Shown piece after piece: positions 4,538 through 50,381 of a stretch of 55,260 nucleotides of DNA. The stretch is from Candidatus Bathyarchaeia archaeon. Lineage in GTDB: Archaea > Thermoproteota > Bathyarchaeia > JBHIEI01. Positions within the stretch are counted from its first letter, which is position 1; each line of letters opens with the position of its first letter. The translations under genes and the position numbers were made by a program. Location: positions 1 to 55,260 of the forward strand of contig JBHIEI010000001.1 of assembly GCA_046760555.1 (NCBI GenBank), written 5' to 3'. Under the pieces are notes generated by a model. It was not told the DNA's origin, made no database searches, and worked only from the letters and a program-made list of their open reading frames with translations.

Positions 4538-5239
4538 TCATGAAGCCTCCTTGCCCCGTCCTCTCCTCCTCGCCATCTCCTCGGCTAGTTCACTCACCGA
4601 TTTGCCCTCTGTCTCTATCCCCAACCTCTTCGCGGCTTCCTTGATCGCTGCCTCGTATTCTTCCTCTGTTTTCCCTTCAATCCCAGTTACTTCCTTTTTG
4701 ATCGTGTATATCGCCTTCCCGATAGACCTAGCGATCTCCGGGATTCTAGAGGGCCTGGCGACCTCATGGGTTCTAGTGGGTCTAGCGATCTCCGGGATTC
4801 TGGTGTAAGCCAGGGAGCCTAGGAACGTCAACATCAAGCCGATGACTGTCATGATAAGAGGGTCGACCAACTCTACAAGGGTTGCTCTTCCCTGCATCAA
4901 ATGGGGAATGATCAGTACGGCCAATGACAGTATCACCATCACAGCTCCTGTGAGAGCGGCAGCGGGTGACGCCCATTTCCTACCTCTCCAACAGTGAGGA
5001 ATGAGGAAACCCCAGAGTGCGATGATGGACATGACTATGAGCGGAACCATGCTCACCTCCAGAACAGCCCTCGACTCTATCGAGAAGAGATAGATCATCC
5101 AGACTATCCCTATCAGTAGGGTGGTAGAGACCAGCTTACTCCAGATTCCAGAATTTTCGGGTGGTATACAAAAAATCGAAACGAGAGCTAAAATCTTTTG
5201 ACAGAATCTCCCATAGATCTGCGCTAATTCCCTTAGCAT
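4538..5239 (-). CDS. integral membrane protein with repeat linker and charged helical C-terminal domain
   Basis: 233 aa. About five hydrophobic helices, then RIPEIAR...RIPEIAR repeats, then the tail EEEYEAAIKEAAKRLGIETEGKSVSELAEEMARRRG. No family recognised. Confidence 0.5.
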   Translation of the reverse strand: MLRELAQIYGRFCQKILALVSIFCIPPENSGIWSKLVSTTLLIGIVWMIYLFSIESRAVLEVSMVPLIVMSIIALWGFLIPHCWRGRKWASPAAALTGAVMVILSLAVLIIPHLMQGRATLVELVDPLIMTVIGLMLTFLGSLAYTRIPEIARPTRTHEVARPSRIPEIARSIGKAIYTIKKEVTGIEGKTEEEYEAAIKEAAKRLGIETEGKSVSELAEEMARRRGRGKEAS

Positions 5240-5590
5240 CTATCAGAGAGCGTGCCCATGCCTCGCTCGAGCGATGGTCCCTAGGTCATCAACTGCCATT
5301 AAAGGTTGAGCCTAGGGGCAAATTGGTCCCAAAGTGCTCTGGATCCCTGACGTTATTGGGGGTGAGTGTCACATACGCAACCATCCCGAAGGCTCATCGA
5401 TCGATGGACCAATTTACGAAGGGTGACAGAGAAGAGAGTGGGCAAGGCACGAGCTCGAAAGTTAGTATCATATCATAAACATCCTGGGCATGGTCGCGGT
5501 GTAGCGGAGGGCTCGTTGCTGCACTGTTCCTGTGGAAAGGTGCCATTAGGGAATGACGTTTGGATTAGAGGTGTCTTTCGGCATTATACC

Positions 5591-7357
5591 TTAGTTTCTA
5601 GACTCGTTGGAGCGATGTCTAGCCAGTTCATGCCCCTTGATTATGTCTCTCTTGGTTAATATCCCGACCAGCTTCTTGGGATCCTGAAGATCCACCACAG
5701 GTAGATGCCCATATCCACTCTCATCTATCATATGCAGAGCGGTGTCGAGCCGTTCCTCAGGGGTTAGGGTGAGAAGCTTCGTCGACATGGTGTCCTCCAC
5801 TTTTTTCTTATCTATCTCATCATCGGGTACTCGGAGGTAATCCCTCAGGGAAACGATGCCGACCAGCTGCCCGTTTTTCAGTACAGGATAGGCTAGATGA
5901 CCTTCTGATCTAAGAAGCTTACCGAATTCCCTTACGGATGTGCTGGGCGAGACCGTCACCACTTTGTCGGTCATAACGTCCTTGACCTTCATCTGCTCCA
6001 GTAGGTCGATGCTGTATTCTCCCCGATGGGCGGGGGATTCCGCGCGATTCAAGGTTTGATTTTCATAGATCGTCCATCTTCCCGAAATTATGTAGGAAAG
6101 AGCACATGCCACCATTAATGGCGCAAGCAAGGTGTAGTCCCCTGTCATTTCGGACACCATGATCAAGGCTGCTATTGGGACCTTTGCTGCGCCAGAGAAA
6201 AGAGCGGCCATCCCGACAAGTACAAATGCACCAGGCTCGACGGCTGGGAGGATTGCCCTAAAAACTGTGCCCAAAACTCCACCCAGCATGGCTCCGATAA
6301 CCAAAGATGGCGCAAAGACACCTCCACTCCCTCCCGAGCTGATGGTAAAACTGGTGGCAAAGATCTTCGCAAAACATAGGATGATCATGGCTGATAATGC
6401 CAGCTGACCATAAATTGCCATCTGGATCCAACCGTAGCCCATTCCAAGGGCTTCGGGCACAAACAATGCCAAAATACCAAGCATGCCTCCACCTATAGCC
6501 GGCTTCAGGTGATTTGGCAGGTTTATTCTTCTAAATAATTTGTCTCGCAGTCCATAGAAGACGTAGACATAAAACCTCGAAACTGGGCCGCATATCAACC
6601 CCAAAATTGCGTAGAAAACGATCTCAAGGGGATGACCGAACACAAACTTGGGCGTAGTGAAAATTGGTGTGAAGCCCACTCCTGGAAAGGACGCAAAGAC
6701 GCAATATGCTACTACGGAAGATATAAAAACGGGAATCAATGCCTCAGCTTCGAAGTCGCGTCTATAAAGCACCTCAGTGCCAAAAATAGCCCCACCCAGT
6801 GGAGCCTTAAAAATGCTGCCGATACCTGCTGCTGCTCCGCAAACCATCACCAGCTCTCGGTCGCGGACGCCAAGCTTTAACGCTGAAGCAAGCCACGAAC
6901 CGAATCCGCCTCCAATCTGAGCTATTGGCCCTTCCCTCCCAGCACTACCACCGGAACCTATAGTTATCAGAGAAGCCACCGTCTTGACCAGAGGAACCCT
7001 TTTTCTGATTACTCCGTGTAACCTGTGGAAAGAGGCTATGACCGCATCGGTTCCATGTCCCTCGGCCTCAGGGGCACAAGAATATATGATTATACCAGAA
7101 ATTAACCCTCCGATTGCTGGCAGAAAAGCAAGCACCCACCAGGGCGACATACTACTTTGCCCCAGAAACGTCGAACTACTCTCCCCTCCTGGTAAAGGGG
7201 GATGATAGCCACCTAAAAATCCAAGAAAGAATTCACTGCTCAGCCTGAGAAGGAAATAGAAGGCTGTGGATCCGATACCGCTGACTATGCCCACTATTGT
7301 TCCGAAAAGAACCCAACGTTGGAGAAATGTTAGGTATGCGGGCAATCTACTCTTCAT
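5591..7357 (-). CDS. ClC-type voltage-gated chloride channel/antiporter with C-terminal CBS pair
   Basis: 588 aa. ClC selectivity motifs GSGGSAGREGP and GGVFAPSL, followed by two CBS repeats (VKDVMTDKVVTV..., VEDTMSTKLLTL...). Confidence 0.9.
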   Translation of the reverse strand: MKSRLPAYLTFLQRWVLFGTIVGIVSGIGSTAFYFLLRLSSEFFLGFLGGYHPPLPGGESSSTFLGQSSMSPWWVLAFLPAIGGLISGIIIYSCAPEAEGHGTDAVIASFHRLHGVIRKRVPLVKTVASLITIGSGGSAGREGPIAQIGGGFGSWLASALKLGVRDRELVMVCGAAAGIGSIFKAPLGGAIFGTEVLYRRDFEAEALIPVFISSVVAYCVFASFPGVGFTPIFTTPKFVFGHPLEIVFYAILGLICGPVSRFYVYVFYGLRDKLFRRINLPNHLKPAIGGGMLGILALFVPEALGMGYGWIQMAIYGQLALSAMIILCFAKIFATSFTISSGGSGGVFAPSLVIGAMLGGVLGTVFRAILPAVEPGAFVLVGMAALFSGAAKVPIAALIMVSEMTGDYTLLAPLMVACALSYIISGRWTIYENQTLNRAESPAHRGEYSIDLLEQMKVKDVMTDKVVTVSPSTSVREFGKLLRSEGHLAYPVLKNGQLVGIVSLRDYLRVPDDEIDKKKVEDTMSTKLLTLTPEERLDTALHMIDESGYGHLPVVDLQDPKKLVGILTKRDIIKGHELARHRSNESRN

Positions 7358-37850: not shown

Positions 37851-38465
37851 ATGGGAGTAAGATACGTAGAGGTTAATGGAAGAGGAGTTGACCACACCCC
37901 TTATCTTCGAGCGATCACGCTATTGCTCTGCGATGCAGCCGAACGGGACGGAAAATCGACCATCTCCTTCGAGAGGTACGGCGATGCTCCTGACAGGGTG
38001 GGCATCCCCATGAAGTCCTTCGCCCTCGTAGGAGACACCTGGGAGGATCTGGAGGGCGACGCTTTGCTCTACGACCCGCCGTATGCGGACGCTGCGGTTC
38101 TCATAGATGCGACATCGATTAAGGGGAACGAGCCCTGGGGATTCGAGGGATTGGTCTTAGCCACCGATCCTCTGAAGGAAGGCTCCACCCTAATCGTAAA
38201 TTCCCCAGAGAATCCGGATTTCTTCCTTAGGTACCTACCTAAGGTGGACTTCAAATACAAAATCGCCACTATCGACGCATATGGGATCGATCCGCTCATC
38301 CCGGTCCCTCTAGCAGGTGCCGTTGGCAAGGTACTACCCGATCTCGTAACCTACCAGTCGCTGGAGGCGGCTGTCAGGGACCGATACAAGGTGGTCGCCG
38401 ATAGGGAGGCCGCGAACCTGAAGAAGGCAACTCAAAGCGTAAAGATATCGGAGGTGCTGCCATGA
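37851..38465 (+). CDS. 2-oxoacid:ferredoxin oxidoreductase gamma subunit-like (divergent)
   Basis: 204 aa. Its position and length fit PorG/VorG, but the canonical GRGGQG reads GRGVDH. Overlaps delta by 4 nt. Confidence 0.55.
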   Translation: MGVRYVEVNGRGVDHTPYLRAITLLLCDAAERDGKSTISFERYGDAPDRVGIPMKSFALVGDTWEDLEGDALLYDPPYADAAVLIDATSIKGNEPWGFEGLVLATDPLKEGSTLIVNSPENPDFFLRYLPKVDFKYKIATIDAYGIDPLIPVPLAGAVGKVLPDLVTYQSLEAAVRDRYKVVADREAANLKKATQSVKISEVLP

Positions 38466-38860
38466 GCAAGAAAGAATGGAAAGCTCCCTTGGAGAAGAAG
38501 AAACACGAGGTTCCATACAGAGTCGGTGCGTACGGACTTCCGGGATGGAAGAAAATGGGGCTAGGACCCGGAACAGGCATCGCAAACGTGATTCCGGCCG
38601 TGCCATTCGGCCAAGGGAATCCCTCCTTCAAGACGGGCAGCACACGAACGCAAAGACCGATCACCGACACCGAAAAGTGCAACCTGGACAAGCTCTGCTG
38701 GCTCTACTGCCCCGACGGGGCACGAAGTCCGGACCCCGACACTTACTTCGCGGTGGACCTGGACTACTGCAAGGGCTGCGGGGTCTGCGCCGCGGTTTGT
38801 CCCGAGAAGGCGATCACGATGCAGGATGAGTTGAAGTGGACGACGTGGGGTGAGAAATAA
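38462..38860 (+). CDS. porD: 2-oxoacid:ferredoxin oxidoreductase delta subunit (ferredoxin-like)
   Basis: 132 aa. One complete CKGCGVCAAVCP motif and one CNLDKLCWLYCP motif, where Asp sits at the second Cys position. Confidence 0.75.
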   Translation: MSKKEWKAPLEKKKHEVPYRVGAYGLPGWKKMGLGPGTGIANVIPAVPFGQGNPSFKTGSTRTQRPITDTEKCNLDKLCWLYCPDGARSPDPDTYFAVDLDYCKGCGVCAAVCPEKAITMQDELKWTTWGEK

Positions 38861-38861
38861 A

Positions 38862-40049
38862 ATGCCAAGAAGAGAAATCCTAACAGGTTCAGGGGCGGTC
38901 GCTTTCGCCGTTAAGATGGCCGATGTCGATGTGGTAGCGTCCTACCCGATCCGACCGTACACGGGGGTCATGAACTGGCTATCAAAGTTCATCGCTGATG
39001 GAGAGCTTGACGCTGAGATCATGTACGCCGACTCGGAGCATTCCCAGTTTGAGATTGTCAAGCACGCCTCAGCTGCAGGTGCACGAACCTTCGTCGGAAG
39101 CTCAGGGGTTGGGATCGAGTTCGCCATGGAGCCAATAGTCATCATCCCGAGCAACAGACTTCCTGTTGTGGCCATGATCGCGAACCGGATGCTCGACGAT
39201 CCCGGTTCCTTCGGTACGGAGCACAACGAGTCACTCGCCATCAGAGATCTTGGCTGGATGCTGCGCTGGCCCGAGAGCGCGCAAGAGGCACTTGACTTCA
39301 CACTTATCGCCTACAGGGTTTCCGAGGACCACAGGGTGCTTTTACCCTCGGGTCTATGCTGTGAGGGCAACTTCGTTACGCACCACCGTTTCAGTGTCGA
39401 GATACCTGATCAGGAACAGGTGGACGAGTTCCTCCCGCCGCTAGACCTGCCGCATGCACTGCACCCGGATCATCCATGGACGATCGCCCCTCAGGTCGAC
39501 GACCGATTCGGGTTTGAGATCAGGAGACAGCACACGGAGGGTATGAGGAATGCCAAAAAGGTCTATGCAGAAGCCCACAAGGACTTCGCCCGAATCTTCG
39601 GAAGAAACGAAGAGCCGTTCCTCGATGAATACATGACCGAAGACGCGGACCTCGCCTTCGTGTCTTGGGGTGGCACATGCACAGTGGCAAGGGCGGCCGT
39701 TCGTTCGTTGAGAAAGGAAGGTCTGAAGATTGGCTTGGTGAGGATGAAAGTCACCATCCCCTTCCCAGACGCCGAACTACAAAAGAGCCTCGCCCGGTTC
39801 AAGGCGGTAGCAACCCTAGACTGCAACTTCCCATCCGGTTCACCTCACGACGGAGGTGTGCTATTCAGGGAGGCCAGAGCGAGCATGTACGAGGTTCCCG
39901 AAAGACCTCACCTCATCGGTGCCCTAGTGGGCCTCGGTGGTCGGACGGTCTTCGTGGACGACCTAAAGGTGATCGGCAGAGAGCTAGCCAAGGTCGCGAA
40001 GGAGGATAAGGTGACGCGAGATACCATGTTCGTTGGAGTGAGGGAGTGA
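38862..40049 (+). CDS. porA: 2-oxoacid (pyruvate/ketoisovalerate):ferredoxin oxidoreductase alpha subunit
   Basis: Start taken at the ATG 1 nt after the delta stop. GSGAVAFAVKMADVDVVASYPIRPYT matches the POR alpha N-terminus. Confidence 0.85.
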   Translation: MPRREILTGSGAVAFAVKMADVDVVASYPIRPYTGVMNWLSKFIADGELDAEIMYADSEHSQFEIVKHASAAGARTFVGSSGVGIEFAMEPIVIIPSNRLPVVAMIANRMLDDPGSFGTEHNESLAIRDLGWMLRWPESAQEALDFTLIAYRVSEDHRVLLPSGLCCEGNFVTHHRFSVEIPDQEQVDEFLPPLDLPHALHPDHPWTIAPQVDDRFGFEIRRQHTEGMRNAKKVYAEAHKDFARIFGRNEEPFLDEYMTEDADLAFVSWGGTCTVARAAVRSLRKEGLKIGLVRMKVTIPFPDAELQKSLARFKAVATLDCNFPSGSPHDGGVLFREARASMYEVPERPHLIGALVGLGGRTVFVDDLKVIGRELAKVAKEDKVTRDTMFVGVRE

Positions 40050-40984
40050 AAATGTCGACGTTATGGCCTAAGGTTGAGATAAGGTACATAGGTGAGGTTC
40101 CAACTGACGAGTACTACGCGAAGGGTCACAGGACGTGCCGGGGCTGCGGTCCGGCGCTCTGTATGAGGTACATAGCTCTGGCGGCTGGTCCGAGGACGAT
40201 CCAGTTCAACGCCACGGGCTGCATGTACGTCGCCAACACGAGCTACTGGACCACACCGTGGGTGTATCCCTGGATGCACACGCAACTCGGAGCCTTCGGC
40301 TCCACCGGAACCGGAACGGCAGCAGCCCTCAAAGCACTGATGCGAAAGGGTAAGATCAAGAAGGAAGAGATCAACGTGGTCAGCTGCGCGGGCGATGGCG
40401 GAGGCGCGGACATCGGGTTCGGTCCGCTATCTGGCGCCTTTGACATGGGCTACGATGCGCTCTGGGTGATCTACGACAACGAGTCCTACGCGAACACGGG
40501 CATCCAGGCCTCGAGCCTAACGCCTTGGGGTGCATGGACCACGTTCACCCCACCGGGCAAGATGCTCAGGCTTGGGAACGTCAGGTACAAGAAGGACGTG
40601 GCCAGAATCGCAGCCGCGCATCAGATACCTTACGTGGCAACGGCCTGCCCCTCCTACCCATACGACTTCATGACGAAGATCCGGAAGGGGCTGGCGGCCA
40701 AGGGTCCAGGCTTCGTCCACATCCTCGCCCCCTGCCCCAAGGGCTGGCTGTTCCCAGCATCCCAGCTGATCGAGGTGGGGAAGAGGGCTGTGGAATCCGG
40801 CATCTGGGTCCTATACGAGGTCGAGGCAGGCAAGTTCAAGATAACCTACAAGCCCAAGAAGAAGATTCCGGTTAAGGACTACATACGGATGCAGGGACGC
40901 TTTAAGCACCTAAGGGACATGGACATTCGCTACATCCAAGAGAGGACCGACACAGCGGCCGAGGAAATAGGCCTCTGGAAATAG
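40046..40984 (+). CDS. porB: 2-oxoacid:ferredoxin oxidoreductase beta subunit (TPP-binding)
   Basis: 312 aa with CRGCGPAL and GDGGGADIG...NESYANTG TPP/Fe-S motifs. Overlaps alpha by 4 nt. Confidence 0.88.
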   Translation: MKMSTLWPKVEIRYIGEVPTDEYYAKGHRTCRGCGPALCMRYIALAAGPRTIQFNATGCMYVANTSYWTTPWVYPWMHTQLGAFGSTGTGTAAALKALMRKGKIKKEEINVVSCAGDGGGADIGFGPLSGAFDMGYDALWVIYDNESYANTGIQASSLTPWGAWTTFTPPGKMLRLGNVRYKKDVARIAAAHQIPYVATACPSYPYDFMTKIRKGLAAKGPGFVHILAPCPKGWLFPASQLIEVGKRAVESGIWVLYEVEAGKFKITYKPKKKIPVKDYIRMQGRFKHLRDMDIRYIQERTDTAAEEIGLWK

Positions 40985-41026: not shown

Positions 41027-41134
41027 CCAAAGACCGTGCAGAGTCGTAGATTTCAGTCCGAATACATAAAAAAGCTAGGGTTGGTTACGCTTCTAAGACT
41101 CTAACTTCATAAGATCGGTACGGAAAATCCTTCG

Positions 41135-41260
41135 TTACTCTCCAGAAGGGGCAACAACCTGTGTGTGCTCTTTCTTCACCTTCCTCTTCTTACCCTTTAT
41201 TACAGGCTTCTTAAAGATGGGAAAGCGAGGCTTGCTCTCTTTCTGCCCACGCCTGCTCAT
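41135..41260 (-). CDS. 41-aa basic low-complexity peptide ending Ser-Gly-Glu; candidate Pup-like modifier or substrate
   Basis: Not in the ORF track (under 60 aa). The ATG at 41260 is 1 nt after the upstream TAA (TAAgATG), with GGAGG 10 nt upstream. Translation is MSRRGQKESKPRFPIFKKPVIKGKKRKVKKEHTQVVAPSGE, with the stop at 41135-41137. Confidence 0.5.
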   Translation of the reverse strand: MSRRGQKESKPRFPIFKKPVIKGKKRKVKKEHTQVVAPSGE

Positions 41261-41261
41261 C

Positions 41262-42872
41262 TTACTTCTTCCTCCCCAATTCCGTCAATAGCTCACCCGC
41301 GGAACTCGCCTTCTCAACTAGTTCTCGGCTCTCTTGCTTATTTAGATCGAAGGGCTCTGGGAGTTCTATCACTTCCCCCTCGAAATACACCTTCCACCAG
41401 GATATCTTGCGTATATCGTTTGGAAATTTTTTCAATACGGAGCTTCTGAAGTATTCTCTTGTATCGCTTGGTCCTTCCGTCAGTCCAGTCTGGATTCTAT
41501 CTATAAGTCTGTCCCAGTCGGGGATTGGTGCAGCGTCTTTAGCGAAGGCTAGCGACTCTCTGGGATCAAATCTGGAATCGCACTCATCGAAATTTACGCC
41601 CTTTCCAACGTAGAATTCGACGCAATCGTCGACAAGGCTGAACTCGTTACACAAACCTATCGCCTCCATTGTTGTCGACGGTTCGTACTCGACCACTAAC
41701 AACTTCTTCGTTATCCAATCTATTCCATTGAACAGGTATTCCAGACTTCTCTCGCTCAGTTTCTGGACCGTGGCCTTCAGGATGTCAAGAGCCATCTTAT
41801 CTTGGGCACTGGCTTCTTCTTGGCTCACCATCTCCTCGATCTTCGCCAGATAGAAACCATCTAGGATCTCTGATACGCAGTCCACCCTTCTCCCATCCGC
41901 TAGTTCCACCCTCCAATTGTAATCCTCAGTGTCCAGGGAGACTTCCATAGCCGAGTTTAGGGGATCCCGTAGCCGTGGTGCATCGTCGAGTAATCCCCTC
42001 TCAAACGCACACATCACGAAAACCTGTAGCACATCCCTCACGAAGATGTGGAACTCGTTCCTCGCGGCCTCCCAATTTATGTCGTGGAGCCTCCAGTACT
42101 TCTCCGGATTGGCGTGAGGCTCATCTCTCAGGTTAAGAATCCCCCGCATGAGGCTCGTGTCAAGAGCGGAGATTCTTTTGAGGAAAGCCGATCTCGGCGA
42201 GATCGTAAATACCGCCGAATTCCCCGCGACTGTAGGCGCTCCCAGATGGGGGAAGACGAATTCCAGTTTTTTACCCTCCTTCGTGCATGTCACGTATTCC
42301 CCTCCACCGATCAGGGGTATGCGAGAGACCATGTACGGAACCAAGGCCCTTTCCACCTCATCCCACCTGTCGATGTTGCACACCCTTCTATCGAGACTTA
42401 TACAGCTGTGGGTGCCGTATGTTACGGATTCGAACCTACCGTCACTAACGGTGGTGGACACGTTGTTCTTGTAGGCGAAGACCCTGCGAAACTCCTTCTC
42501 GGTAGCCTTTGCTCCCCAGTAGGCGAATATTTCGCCAACCTTGTCGTAGACCACGGCGTCAAATGGGGTCCGATAGGCGGGAGTGGACACCTCAAAGTGT
42601 TCCGCATCGTTGTAGACCCTCGATCCGTTCAGAGCAGCCTCGAAGGGACCCACCGGTGCCATCCAGAGCGCCGGTAACCCCTGCTCGTACTCTAGGTTCC
42701 CAATTTCATCGTCGATGCTCCAATCGACCTCGCTGATGTATCCCTGTTCCTTCAGCCCCATTATGGCGGAGCTGATTACGCGGTTCCTCAGTATGCTACT
42801 CGTGAGGGAAGGGTGCGTGTCGATAGCGTACTCGTACTCTATGCCACGGATTCTGCCGTCGATGAATCCCAT
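41262..42872 (-). CDS. PafA/Dop-family (Pup ligase/deamidase fold) protein, larger divergent paralogue
   Basis: 536 aa. Family landmarks GIEYEYAI, LNGSRVYNDAEHFEVSTP, FAYKNN...TYGTHSCIS, NLRDEPHANPEKYWRLH, LRDPLNSAMEVS and IDWITKKLL are collinear with actinobacterial PafA/Dop. Confidence 0.8.
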   Translation of the reverse strand: MGFIDGRIRGIEYEYAIDTHPSLTSSILRNRVISSAIMGLKEQGYISEVDWSIDDEIGNLEYEQGLPALWMAPVGPFEAALNGSRVYNDAEHFEVSTPAYRTPFDAVVYDKVGEIFAYWGAKATEKEFRRVFAYKNNVSTTVSDGRFESVTYGTHSCISLDRRVCNIDRWDEVERALVPYMVSRIPLIGGGEYVTCTKEGKKLEFVFPHLGAPTVAGNSAVFTISPRSAFLKRISALDTSLMRGILNLRDEPHANPEKYWRLHDINWEAARNEFHIFVRDVLQVFVMCAFERGLLDDAPRLRDPLNSAMEVSLDTEDYNWRVELADGRRVDCVSEILDGFYLAKIEEMVSQEEASAQDKMALDILKATVQKLSERSLEYLFNGIDWITKKLLVVEYEPSTTMEAIGLCNEFSLVDDCVEFYVGKGVNFDECDSRFDPRESLAFAKDAAPIPDWDRLIDRIQTGLTEGPSDTREYFRSSVLKKFPNDIRKISWWKVYFEGEVIELPEPFDLNKQESRELVEKASSAGELLTELGRKK

Positions 42873-44294: not shown

Positions 44295-44337
44295 GGGGTC
44301 AAGAACCTTTTTAGCACCCTAGTATAAAGCTTACCAG

Positions 44338-49106: not shown

Positions 49107-50381
49107 CTACCAAAAATCCTCCAGTGTAAGGCGACTTTCTCGAGCAGTTTCGGTCCCTTCCTCGAATATCTCGAGTTTGCCGTATTCTCCATCGTACCCC
49201 GGCTCGATTTTGACAAGACCCTCTCGAACCCTGAGTATGGCTTCGGCCACCCTCGGCCCCACAACATCGCCCATCTTCTTAGCGGAAGCTTCCATGAGCA
49301 CACTATATTCGTTACCGAATCTCCCGATTAGGGTGTTGTAGATCCTCCACACCGTCTTATTCGTGAAGGATGAAACCTTTACGGCGTTCGCGATTATCTC
49401 GTGTAGTGGTAGAAGGTGAGTGAAACTTATGGCCCCTTCTGGCTTGAAACCAGGGGGGCGGTCGGCGAGTTCCTCGATCCGTTCCTCCACCCCTTTTGTG
49501 AGCTTCAGATGGCAGACTGGACAAAAGTCTTGGAGGGACATCGCCTTCTGAGGAGGCATCGAGATTCCACAACCCCGATGCCCTGTCCAGTGATACTTTC
49601 CATAGGCAGGATTGACCTCGATGGTGCCCTTGAATCTAGCGGCATCCTTACTTCTAATGGCGTCTACGATCTCCTCGTAGGAGAGTCGCTCTAGCTCCAA
49701 TAGGTTCGCCTCACGTCCCAGCCGCCAAGGCCAAGCGCTGTGACAGTCAGAGTTCGACACCAAAGCGAATCTATCAAGCTCGGAAAGCCTCCAATTCATA
49801 GGAGGATCCGACGAAAGCCCAGTCTCGAGAGCGAAGATGTGCTCGGTCTGGTCCTGGTAGCAGTCCTCTATTCGATCAAATCCGCTGAAGGCACCAAAGA
49901 GGGAGAACCAAGGCGTCCAAACGTGGGCTGGGATTATGACGTTCCTCGCCGATGTTTCCATGATCACCTCGGCTATCTCCGGAGCGGACGCGTTGAAAAC
50001 CGGGCGCCCGTCCGACGATAGATCCCCGAACCCAGCTAGGCGGTCATTTATCTGCTCCCCCGTCTCGATGTTCGGGGTCCAGATCACATGGTGAACTTTC
50101 CTTACTCGGTTCTCATACGTGAATATGGTTGAAACCTCCCCGGTTATCATAAACCTAACCGGAGATTTGAGATCAACTCTGGGCCTATAAATATCTGCGT
50201 CGGGCACCTCCTCTAAGTTCTCTTTGATTTCGGCTAACCATCTGGGATTGGTGAAATCGCCCGTACCAACTAGATTCAAGCCCTTAGCTTCAGCGAACTT
50301 GGTTATCTCGGGAATGGCCATACGAAAGCTTGTAGCCCTGCTATATCTGCCATGGATGTGCAAATCGGCGATTATCCGCAA
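49107..50381 (-). CDS. endoQ: endonuclease Q (PHP-domain, deaminated-base endonuclease)
   Basis: 424 aa with a TTG start. DLHIHGRYSRA, KGLNLVGTGD, NSDCHS..RLGRE, GKYHWTGH, the zinc ribbon CPVCH and KGVEERIEELAD parallel Pyrococcus EndoQ. Confidence 0.75.
   Translation of the reverse strand: MRIIADLHIHGRYSRATSFRMAIPEITKFAEAKGLNLVGTGDFTNPRWLAEIKENLEEVPDADIYRPRVDLKSPVRFMITGEVSTIFTYENRVRKVHHVIWTPNIETGEQINDRLAGFGDLSSDGRPVFNASAPEIAEVIMETSARNVIIPAHVWTPWFSLFGAFSGFDRIEDCYQDQTEHIFALETGLSSDPPMNWRLSELDRFALVSNSDCHSAWPWRLGREANLLELERLSYEEIVDAIRSKDAARFKGTIEVNPAYGKYHWTGHRGCGISMPPQKAMSLQDFCPVCHLKLTKGVEERIEELADRPPGFKPEGAISFTHLLPLHEIIANAVKVSSFTNKTVWRIYNTLIGRFGNEYSVLMEASAKKMGDVVGPRVAEAILRVREGLVKIEPGYDGEYGKLEIFEEGTETARESRLTLEDFW

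Follow-up and report, generated by a model that had tools for sequence, protein, structure and literature searches.

A short basic peptide gene behind paired PafA/Dop-family genes in Thermoproteota: a candidate Pup-type modifier in archaea

What might a 41-codon open reading frame (ORF) encode when it lies a single base behind a gene for an enzyme of the PafA/Dop family, and does so in an archaeon? The question is raised by a 55,260-nt stretch of the genome of a Candidatus Bathyarchaeia archaeon (contig JBHIEI010000001.1 of assembly GCA_046760555.1, positions 1 to 55,260; this whole stretch is hereafter called the window), in which two paralogous PafA/Dop-family genes are followed on the minus strand by a small ORF whose product ends in Gly-Glu. 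To our knowledge, protein tagging in archaea is known only through modifiers of the beta-grasp SAMP/ubiquitin type. The original prediction, made from the letters of the window, had proposed that the small ORF encodes an analogue of Pup, the modifier of pupylation. Here we argue that the ORF is a real gene and, by analogy with pupylation, that its product probably serves the two PafA/Dop-family enzymes of the upstream genes as their dedicated substrate, a tag of the pupylation type.

The 41-codon gene and its family

The mini-gene occupies positions 41135-41260 of the minus strand (41 codons plus a TAA stop; product MSRRGQKESKPRFPIFKKPVIKGKKRKVKKEHTQVVAPSGE), and its ATG at 41258-41260 begins one base past the TAA of the 536-aa gene upstream (...gaagTAAgATG). 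A Shine-Dalgarno-like GGAGG at 41271-41275 on the same strand falls inside the 3' end of that Dop-like gene, whose product we call D536; it spans -15 to -11 and leaves 10 nt between the 3' end of the motif and the ATG. Taken together, the position of this motif and the TAAgATG junction indicate translational coupling of the mini-gene to the Dop-like gene. The ORF, the junction and the motif are all present in the sequence as originally predicted, and recomputing the composition of the peptide returned the predicted figures (14 Lys plus Arg, 3 Asp plus Glu, no Cys, Trp or Tyr, and a -GE end), with an isoelectric point (pI) of 11.2. The product is probably unstructured.

Because ORFs of 30 aa or longer number 137 in 14 kb of the window, a lone 41-codon ORF is not evidence of a gene, and searches of the mini-gene and its peptide against Pfam, NCBIfam and Rfam gave no match. 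The case that the gene is real is made instead by the family to which the peptide belongs, by its in-frame substitution pattern and by its conserved place behind the Dop-like gene. In the five first-found relatives of D536, all from archaeal metagenome-assembled genomes (MAGs), a small ORF ending in G-Q or G-E lies directly downstream in 5/5 cases. A search with a peptide profile built from D536-linked loci gave 72 protein clusters, a number that a wider profile raised to 93; these 93 clusters define a family of 31-63 aa in which most members measure 36-40 aa. None of the 93 carries a functional name (they are entered as ‘hypothetical protein’ or left unnamed). At the stop codon 52 of the clusters end in G-Q and the other 41 in G-E, with no other ending (PPGQ in 51, PPGE in 37, PSGE in 4 and QPGQ in 1). 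The family core reads [LF]xPxFK[KR]...K[KE]EHxx[VI][VI]AP[PS]G[QE]-stop, of which the window peptide is a divergent member; its ending, -QVVAPSGE, is common to the nearest relative (locus L011; loci in other sequences are designated here by L numbers), whose two enzymes are 58% and 56% identical to those of the window. Conservation peaks at the PPG[QE]-stop and the KEH..VVAP segment, and single Lys positions vary and are often Arg.

The ratio of nonsynonymous to synonymous change (dN/dS, Nei-Gojobori) is 0.097 in frame among six Bathyarchaeia genes and 0.045 among six genes from Methanomethylicales, where dS exceeds 1; read in either of the remaining frames, the same DNA gives 1.4-2.1. Shine-Dalgarno-like motifs are found 8-15 nt upstream of the peptide start in most of the related loci, the distance from the stop of the D536-type gene to the peptide start ranges from -1 to +6 nt in the family, and start, motif and stop are kept across classes. 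Two checks had been proposed along with the original prediction, namely conservation of a short G-E or G-Q ORF downstream of PafA/Dop-like genes in related archaea and dN/dS analysis, and both came out in its favour. By these comparisons the 41-codon ORF is translated and subject to strong purifying selection, and it is coupled to the gene of D536.

The enzyme pair and its linkage to the peptide gene

Upstream of the mini-gene and on the same strand lie the genes of D536 (41262-42872; Pfam Pup_ligase, PF03136, E = 2.4e-52) and of a second paralogue of 470 aa, P470 (42882-44294; PF03136, E = 2.4e-66). Their scores of 178.8 and 225 bits, respectively, compare with a gathering cutoff of 25, and the two proteins are 27% identical to one another. 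AlphaFold2 models of both have a predicted local distance difference test (pLDDT) score of 94.7 and predicted template-modelling (pTM) scores of 0.95 and 0.94, and each combines a glutamine-synthetase (GS)-like N-terminal domain with the C-terminal domain specific to the family. Foldseek matches both models over their full length to Dop and PafA (template-modelling (TM) scores 0.59-0.81, E 1e-13 to 1e-28), with GCS2/YbdK as the next-best match at a TM of ~0.4. The D536 model is nearest to Dop (TM 0.72-0.74 and E ~1e-26 for the A. cellulolyticus entries; PafA, 0.59-0.65), as is its sequence (110 bits for Dop, 31 bits for PafA), and it carries an ordered, helix-containing insertion at the site of the Dop-loop; the P470 model is equally near to Dop and to the PafA-Pup complex, at a TM of ~0.80 each. 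In a rough neighbour-joining tree of 146 family representatives the two archaeal paralogue clades are sisters and stand apart from canonical Dop, a grouping that is indicative only since canonical PafA was outside the sample.

In A. cellulolyticus Dop the Mg ligands are Glu8, Glu10, Tyr92, Glu99, His155 and His241, with Asp94 as the catalytic and Arg227 as the phosphate-binding residue (PMC8599861). D536 keeps the Mg ligands of Dop and its catalytic Asp, Arg and His: the ligands correspond to E12, E14, Y87, E94, H155 and H263, and Asp94 and Arg227 to D89 and R249, all of them invariant in 57-58 orthologues. Judged from these residues, the active site of D536 is intact. The ‘HEN’ Glu beside His155 is replaced throughout the D536 family, and the notion that this replacement renders D536 dead was dropped, as the Mg ligand is His155 and not Glu156 (PMC8599861). 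The corresponding catalytic positions of the window's P470 hold D72, R210 and Q223.

The linkage of the peptide gene to this enzyme pair is obligate. The order P470-type gene, D536-type gene and peptide recurs in Bathyarchaeia, Methanomethylicales and the window's own clade. In a scan independent of neighbouring genes, the back-translated C-terminal motif was run against 185,579 species (one genome each) and yielded 21 loci, 19 in Thermoproteota (2 of them second copies of contigs already in the enzyme-based set) and 2 in bacterial MAGs; every archaeal motif locus with upstream DNA has a D536-type gene. The distance between the P470-type and D536-type genes is generally 1-110 nt and ~350 nt in L016, and in a Methanomethylicaceae locus (L003, JBMFMY010000016.1) the two are separated by 1.3 kb without a long ORF (4588-5919). 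A single locus disrupts the peptide frame, the event that had been named as telling against the original prediction, and it has also lost both enzymes: in L034 (Bathyarchaeia CAYPNN010000005.1, 3968-4400), which in its flanks shares 90-92% identity with L017, a locus that is intact, a deletion of ~2.8 kb has removed all of P470 and most of D536, and the peptide's TGA stop has become TGG, so that the frame reads on for 24 codons and the free -GQ end is lost. Such a joint loss is what co-dependence would predict, in what is a single case from one MAG.

One of the two bacterial hits, a Tectomicrobia MAG (JACPSX01), holds the same three components in another order, with the peptide followed by a P470-type gene (39% identical) and then a D536-type gene (43% identical). 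That the Tectomicrobia peptide is unlinked to a Pup_ligase gene was considered and set aside as a contig-edge artefact, ruled out by the Logan contig L035, which is 99% identical to both MAG contigs and joins them (the locus spans L035 1-2905, L032 216-577 and L041 355-3326). The peptide is 53 aa long, ends in ...KEHAAIVSPSGE, and has a longer, acidic N-terminus. That a bacterium carries these components, rearranged, points to horizontal transfer, from archaea to Tectomicrobia or the reverse. In the second bacterial MAG (L020) a similar peptide of 55 aa is found on a contig that ends without upstream sequence. A separate locus search by D536 alignment returned mostly actinobacterial dop loci, which served as controls, and two new non-canonical loci: L041, just described, and L040 (CAZXYJ010000215.1), a 1.8-kb contig with a D536-type gene (38% identical) from a bin labelled uncultured Halobacteria archaeon. 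The L040 contig is too short for neighbouring genes to be seen, and its Halobacteria binning may be wrong.

More divergent archaeal loci join the same enzyme families to small proteins of a different kind. In an Aenigmatarchaeota locus (L005, JBMSAV010000089.1, 2-2761) a D536-type gene is followed by an acidic 86-aa ORF (...VTVEGE), which overlaps the gene before it by 4 nt (-4), and then by a P470-type gene; this ORF contains ...EEELDIIDKVKKIL..., recalling the helical region of Pup, and gave no Pfam Pup match. Two further loci each combine an AAA ATPase gene, two Pup_ligase genes and a small ORF (L038 1693-7084, archaeal by uS10, with an ORF of 109 aa as called ending ...KGEAGQ; L039 486-5959, with an ORF of 83 aa ending ...YATSGE). 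None of these three small ORFs can be aligned with the window peptide, and all have acidic N-terminal and Lys-rich C-terminal halves. The operons of L038 and L039 open with the ATPase, which is of the PAN/Mpa/Cdc48 group and far below all curated cutoffs; that of L039 covers positions 33-471 of the 512 of the pup_AAA (Mpa/ARC) model, again far below the cutoff. The PAN/Mpa-type ATPase upstream is an echo of the actinobacterial mpa-dop-pup order. The short basic form of the peptide, as far as the sequences go, is specific to Thermoproteota and Tectomicrobia: the short basic character described in the original prediction stands for these groups, and other archaeal loci pair the enzymes with proteins of 83-109 aa with acidic N-terminal halves.

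As a control, the rule ‘first small ORF after the Dop-type gene’ was applied to 77 bacterial dop loci, and in 51 of them the ORF it picked out was canonical Pup (...FVRAYVQKGG[QE]) or one of the UBact type. Endings in G[QE] make up at most 1.6% of the small ORFs in all fetched loci, true pup genes counted in. Three Poribacteria loci (L065, L074 and L102) have ORFs of 65-90 aa some ~65-170 nt downstream of dop, ending in ...RYRQRTGE or ...NYRQRTGE, and two others (L062 and L116) have small ORFs ending in ...ENYIQRGGQ; both tag types therefore occur inside one phylum.

Readings of the peptide

For the reading that we prefer, a pupylation-type tag, we propose a mechanism by analogy. The Glu at the C-terminus of the peptide would insert its side-chain carboxylate into the glutamine-synthetase-like active site, ATP would phosphorylate this side chain to an acyl phosphate, and an amine, most likely that of a lysine in a target protein, would then attack the acyl phosphate to give an isopeptide bond. 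One paralogue would ligate and the other would reverse the bond; for peptides ending in Gln the second enzyme would first deamidate Gln to Glu, and the Glu-ended window peptide would be ligation-ready. The original prediction that no deamidation is needed accordingly fits the window peptide and does not extend to the 52 of 93 clusters with a terminal Gln. Binding of the peptide by the enzymes, its ligation, the lysine acceptors, the roles of the paralogues and the downstream fate of the tag are all points that we infer by analogy. P470 would by the same analogy be the ligase, an assignment weakened by its variable catalytic positions, and D536 may be more than a deamidase and act as the principal catalyst, since it is always retained, even with a peptide of the Glu type, and its active site is invariant. 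A route from the tag to an AAA unfoldase or the proteasome is suggested by the ATPases in the operons of the two divergent loci only.

Every genomic prediction named with the Pup-analogue reading has held (synteny, selection, coupling and a G-E or G-Q end). Actinobacterial pupylation joins Pup with the ligase PafA and the deamidase/depupylase Dop, mostly next to Mpa/ARC and the 20S proteasome. As in that system, two paralogous enzymes of PafA/Dop fold are accompanied by a small ORF that immediately follows the Dop-like gene, and as in Pup the terminal residue before the stop is Gln or Glu after Gly and varies by lineage. Two near-identical peptides (L030 and L033) differ in their last residue, E against Q, which resembles the PupQ/PupE toggle of Pup; PupQ needs deamidation by Dop and PupE does not (PMC8599861). 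On a wider view, Thermoproteota (Bathyarchaeia, Methanomethylicia and relatives) and divergent archaea might run a genuine pupylation-type tagging system with a modifier family of their own, a basic ‘mini-Pup’ of 31-63 residues ending in PPG(Q/E), written and erased by a deep-branching PafA/Dop pair and read, in some lineages at least, by a PAN/Mpa-like AAA unfoldase from the same operon; this broader proposal we hold only tentatively, at somewhat less than even confidence.

Several observations weigh against a pupylation-type tag. The Pup profiles of Pfam and NCBIfam match neither the window peptide nor five relatives at E values up to 10, and relative to Pup the archaeal peptide is shorter by about half (31-63 aa, 41 in the window, versus ~64), basic (pI ~11) where Pup is acidic, and ends in P-[PS]-G-[QE] with a single Gly in place of G-G-[QE]. 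This last difference, which the original prediction had pointed out, holds for the whole family and is shared by the UBact-type Poribacteria ORFs (...RQRTGE), so it does not set the archaeal peptide apart from every known tag. Both enzymes fall far below the equivalog cutoffs for Dop (TIGR03688) and PafA (TIGR03686) of 492.3 and 551.3 (D536 scores 148.5 with Dop and 94.5 with PafA, P470 167.5 and 169.5), and canonical Dop representatives score 528-578 bits. P470 varies at positions that serve catalysis in PafA and Dop: its Asp94 equivalent is Asp in the window, in L011-L013 and in Methanomethylicales and His in all Bathyarchaeia examined (L002, L004, L006, L017, L022, L033 and L036), its Arg227 equivalent is Ile in two Methanomethylicales (L003 and L016), and its His241 equivalent is Gln in the window (Q223). 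A clean division into ligase and hydrolase is consequently not evident. Within ~12 kb of the three genes the window has nothing that encodes the proteasome, PAN or Cdc48, no proteasome subunit or ATPase is linked to the Thermoproteota loci, and an AAA ATPase occurs in the divergent L038 and L039 alone. Lastly, conjugation by the peptide is itself something that we infer.

The variation in P470 is unusual in that the same residues are otherwise invariant in the PafA/Dop family. An idea that Asp or His at the Asp94 position of P470 tracks Glu or Gln at the end of the peptide fitted 13 loci and was refuted by L036, a Bathyarchaeia locus that combines a -GE peptide with His; the Asp/His difference is hence clade-specific.

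The best-surviving alternative, which we nevertheless regard as unlikely, is that the peptide is a carrier or scaffold for small-molecule chemistry in the manner of LysW, other amino-group carrier proteins (AmCP) or TglA, in which case its Glu would be ligated to an amine metabolite that is processed while tethered and then released. The setting of the Bathyarchaeia operon, amid amidohydrolases, an M55 peptidase, DUF3830, penicillin amidase and gamma-glutamyltranspeptidase, would suit such chemistry, as would the lack of proteasome linkage at most loci. These neighbours change between clades, however, so that the conserved unit consists of the three genes; no tailoring enzyme is conserved across clades, and the three genes are the only invariant set. 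Both enzymes moreover retain a C-terminal domain that is found only in enzymes of pupylation, and an AAA ATPase of the unfoldase type in two divergent loci fits protein targeting better than metabolism. LysW-type carriers have an ATP-grasp partner and a Zn-finger, and the window peptide has no Cys.

A further alternative, quite improbable in our estimate, has the peptide as something other than the donor: a Lys-rich acceptor or self-polymerising substrate, or else a regulator or cofactor that plugs or activates the active site with its terminal Glu or Gln and is not itself transferred. Lys and Arg do average 31% of residues across the family, the terminal residue of Pup co-catalyses phosphate formation in Dop (PMC8599861), and the relaxed catalytic positions of P470 would fit a non-canonical or non-catalytic role. 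Yet the invariance sits at the extreme C-terminus and in KEH..VVAP and not at the lysines, which drift; a reactive C-terminus would suit both the Gln/Glu toggling and a free end that is lost only together with the enzymes, and a pure regulator has no obvious need for both a Gln and a Glu form. The carrier and the acceptor/regulator explanations are both weakened by this evidence.

That there is no coding gene at all, the ORF being a chance one or the conserved element an RNA, a terminator or the 3' end of the Dop-like gene, deserves practically no credence: the ORF is short, lies under the usual annotation cutoffs and has no match in the three databases, but near-saturated synonymous change with conserved amino acids in this frame only, an overlap with the upstream gene of at most 1 nt in the family (4 nt at the small ORF of L005), and 93 clusters independently called in metagenomes with conserved start, Shine-Dalgarno-like motif and stop effectively refute it.

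Known tagging systems and the surroundings of the locus

By sequence the archaeal peptide is neither Pup nor UBact, and its partner enzymes are PafA/Dop family members by Pfam and fold and not PafA or Dop equivalogs. UBact, which Lehmann et al. are said to have described in 2017 as a Pup-like tag of Gram-negative phyla, is represented in our data by the Poribacteria ORFs, and it resembles the archaeal peptide in its single Gly before the terminal Glu, its place beside dop and its Arg/Lys-rich C-terminal region. The two part ways in their endings (K[KE]EHxx[VI][VI]AP[PS]G[QE] versus RYRQRTGE), in their enzyme subfamilies and in the phyla that carry them. UBact loci are also reported to contain proteasome subunits, which are not seen at the archaeal three-gene loci.

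The comparison with LysW and other amino-group carrier proteins turns on the chemistry proposed here, in which the carboxylate of a C-terminal Glu would likewise be joined to an amine at the expense of ATP. LysW works with ATP-grasp ligases (LysX/ArgX), has a globular Zn-finger domain and is encoded in lysine/arginine biosynthesis operons; the archaeal peptide differs in having GS-fold PafA/Dop partners, no Cys and no conserved biosynthetic operon. If the tag were proven, it would share with the archaeal beta-grasp modifiers (the SAMPs, Urm1-like proteins and the Caldiarchaeum ubiquitin) the conjugation of a small protein to lysines in archaea. Lysine conjugation by archaeal beta-grasp proteins is tied in part to proteasomal degradation. 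The window peptide has nowhere near the length needed for that fold, its family terminates in Glu or Gln, and its partners have the GS fold, whereas beta-grasp modifiers are folded, end in Gly-Gly and depend on E1-like adenylation of the alpha-carboxylate (PMC2948915). Within ~12 kb in the window there is no beta-grasp or E1 gene.

An archaeal host is a departure from pupylation as it has been described. A phylogenetic survey of PafA/Dop covered bacterial phyla only and placed the origin in Actinobacteria (PMC7947786), a 2025 review treats pupylation as bacterial (PMC12288473), and neither Iyer et al. 2008 nor Makarova and Koonin 2010 described an archaeal PafA-linked Pup. Our searches of the full-text literature, the peptide motif itself included, turned up nothing on an archaeal Pup/PafA/Dop system. 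In the NCBI pipeline the archaeal enzymes already go by the name ‘PafA2 family protein’; what appears to be new is therefore the gene of the modifier, together with the idea of such a system in archaea, and not the enzymes. If the tag reading is true, archaea would possess a second, mechanistically distinct tagging pathway that is lysine-directed and unrelated to ubiquitin, and tagging of the Pup type would extend beyond bacteria and need not have been invented by actinobacteria, which would reopen the question of its origin relative to the archaeal-type proteasome acquired by actinobacteria. At 31-41 aa the peptide would also be the smallest known candidate protein tag and a potential ligation tool. 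Its gene would further show that gene callers regularly overlook the key component of such a system or give it no name. Members of the Methanomethylicia are reportedly now in culture.

The remainder of the window is an ordinary archaeal chromosome. Its genes include those for FtsZ, a MiaB-like radical S-adenosylmethionine enzyme, a NUDIX protein, an NAD-epimerase and a Clp1-like P-loop kinase, as well as a single-stranded-DNA-binding-like protein with an oligonucleotide-binding (OB) fold, tRNase Z and phosphoribosyl pyrophosphate synthetase. No tRNA or Rfam element was found in the window, and a 424-aa ORF (49107-50381, minus strand) has no Pfam match. Convergent with the three-gene locus is a four-subunit pyruvate/oxalate:ferredoxin oxidoreductase (POR) operon (37851-40984, plus strand), whose best NCBIfam match, below cutoff, is oxalate oxidoreductase alpha/beta. 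A 204-aa ORF (37851-38465, plus strand) occupies the place expected for the gamma subunit, which in L011 matches PF01558, and gave no Pfam match at E up to 1e-3. POR operons are found close to the three genes both in the window's clade and among Methanomethylicales (L008 2077-5540, L011 4381-7477 and L013 1-1379), adjoin them in the window, L008 and L011, and occur in both orientations; their proximity is probably a matter of synteny.

Two candidate transcription signals frame the three genes. A possible archaeal TATA box, TTTATA, at 44323-44328 on the minus strand lies in the 43 nt that separate the P470 gene from a divergent epimerase gene, with its centre ~31 nt before the P470 ATG, and is proposed from sequence only. 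At the other end an oligo-T run (TTTTTT; 41068-41073, minus strand), a possible archaeal transcription stop, lies ~60 nt past the stop of the mini-gene, and T-rich tracts are likewise found 3' of the mini-gene in the Methanomethylicales loci.

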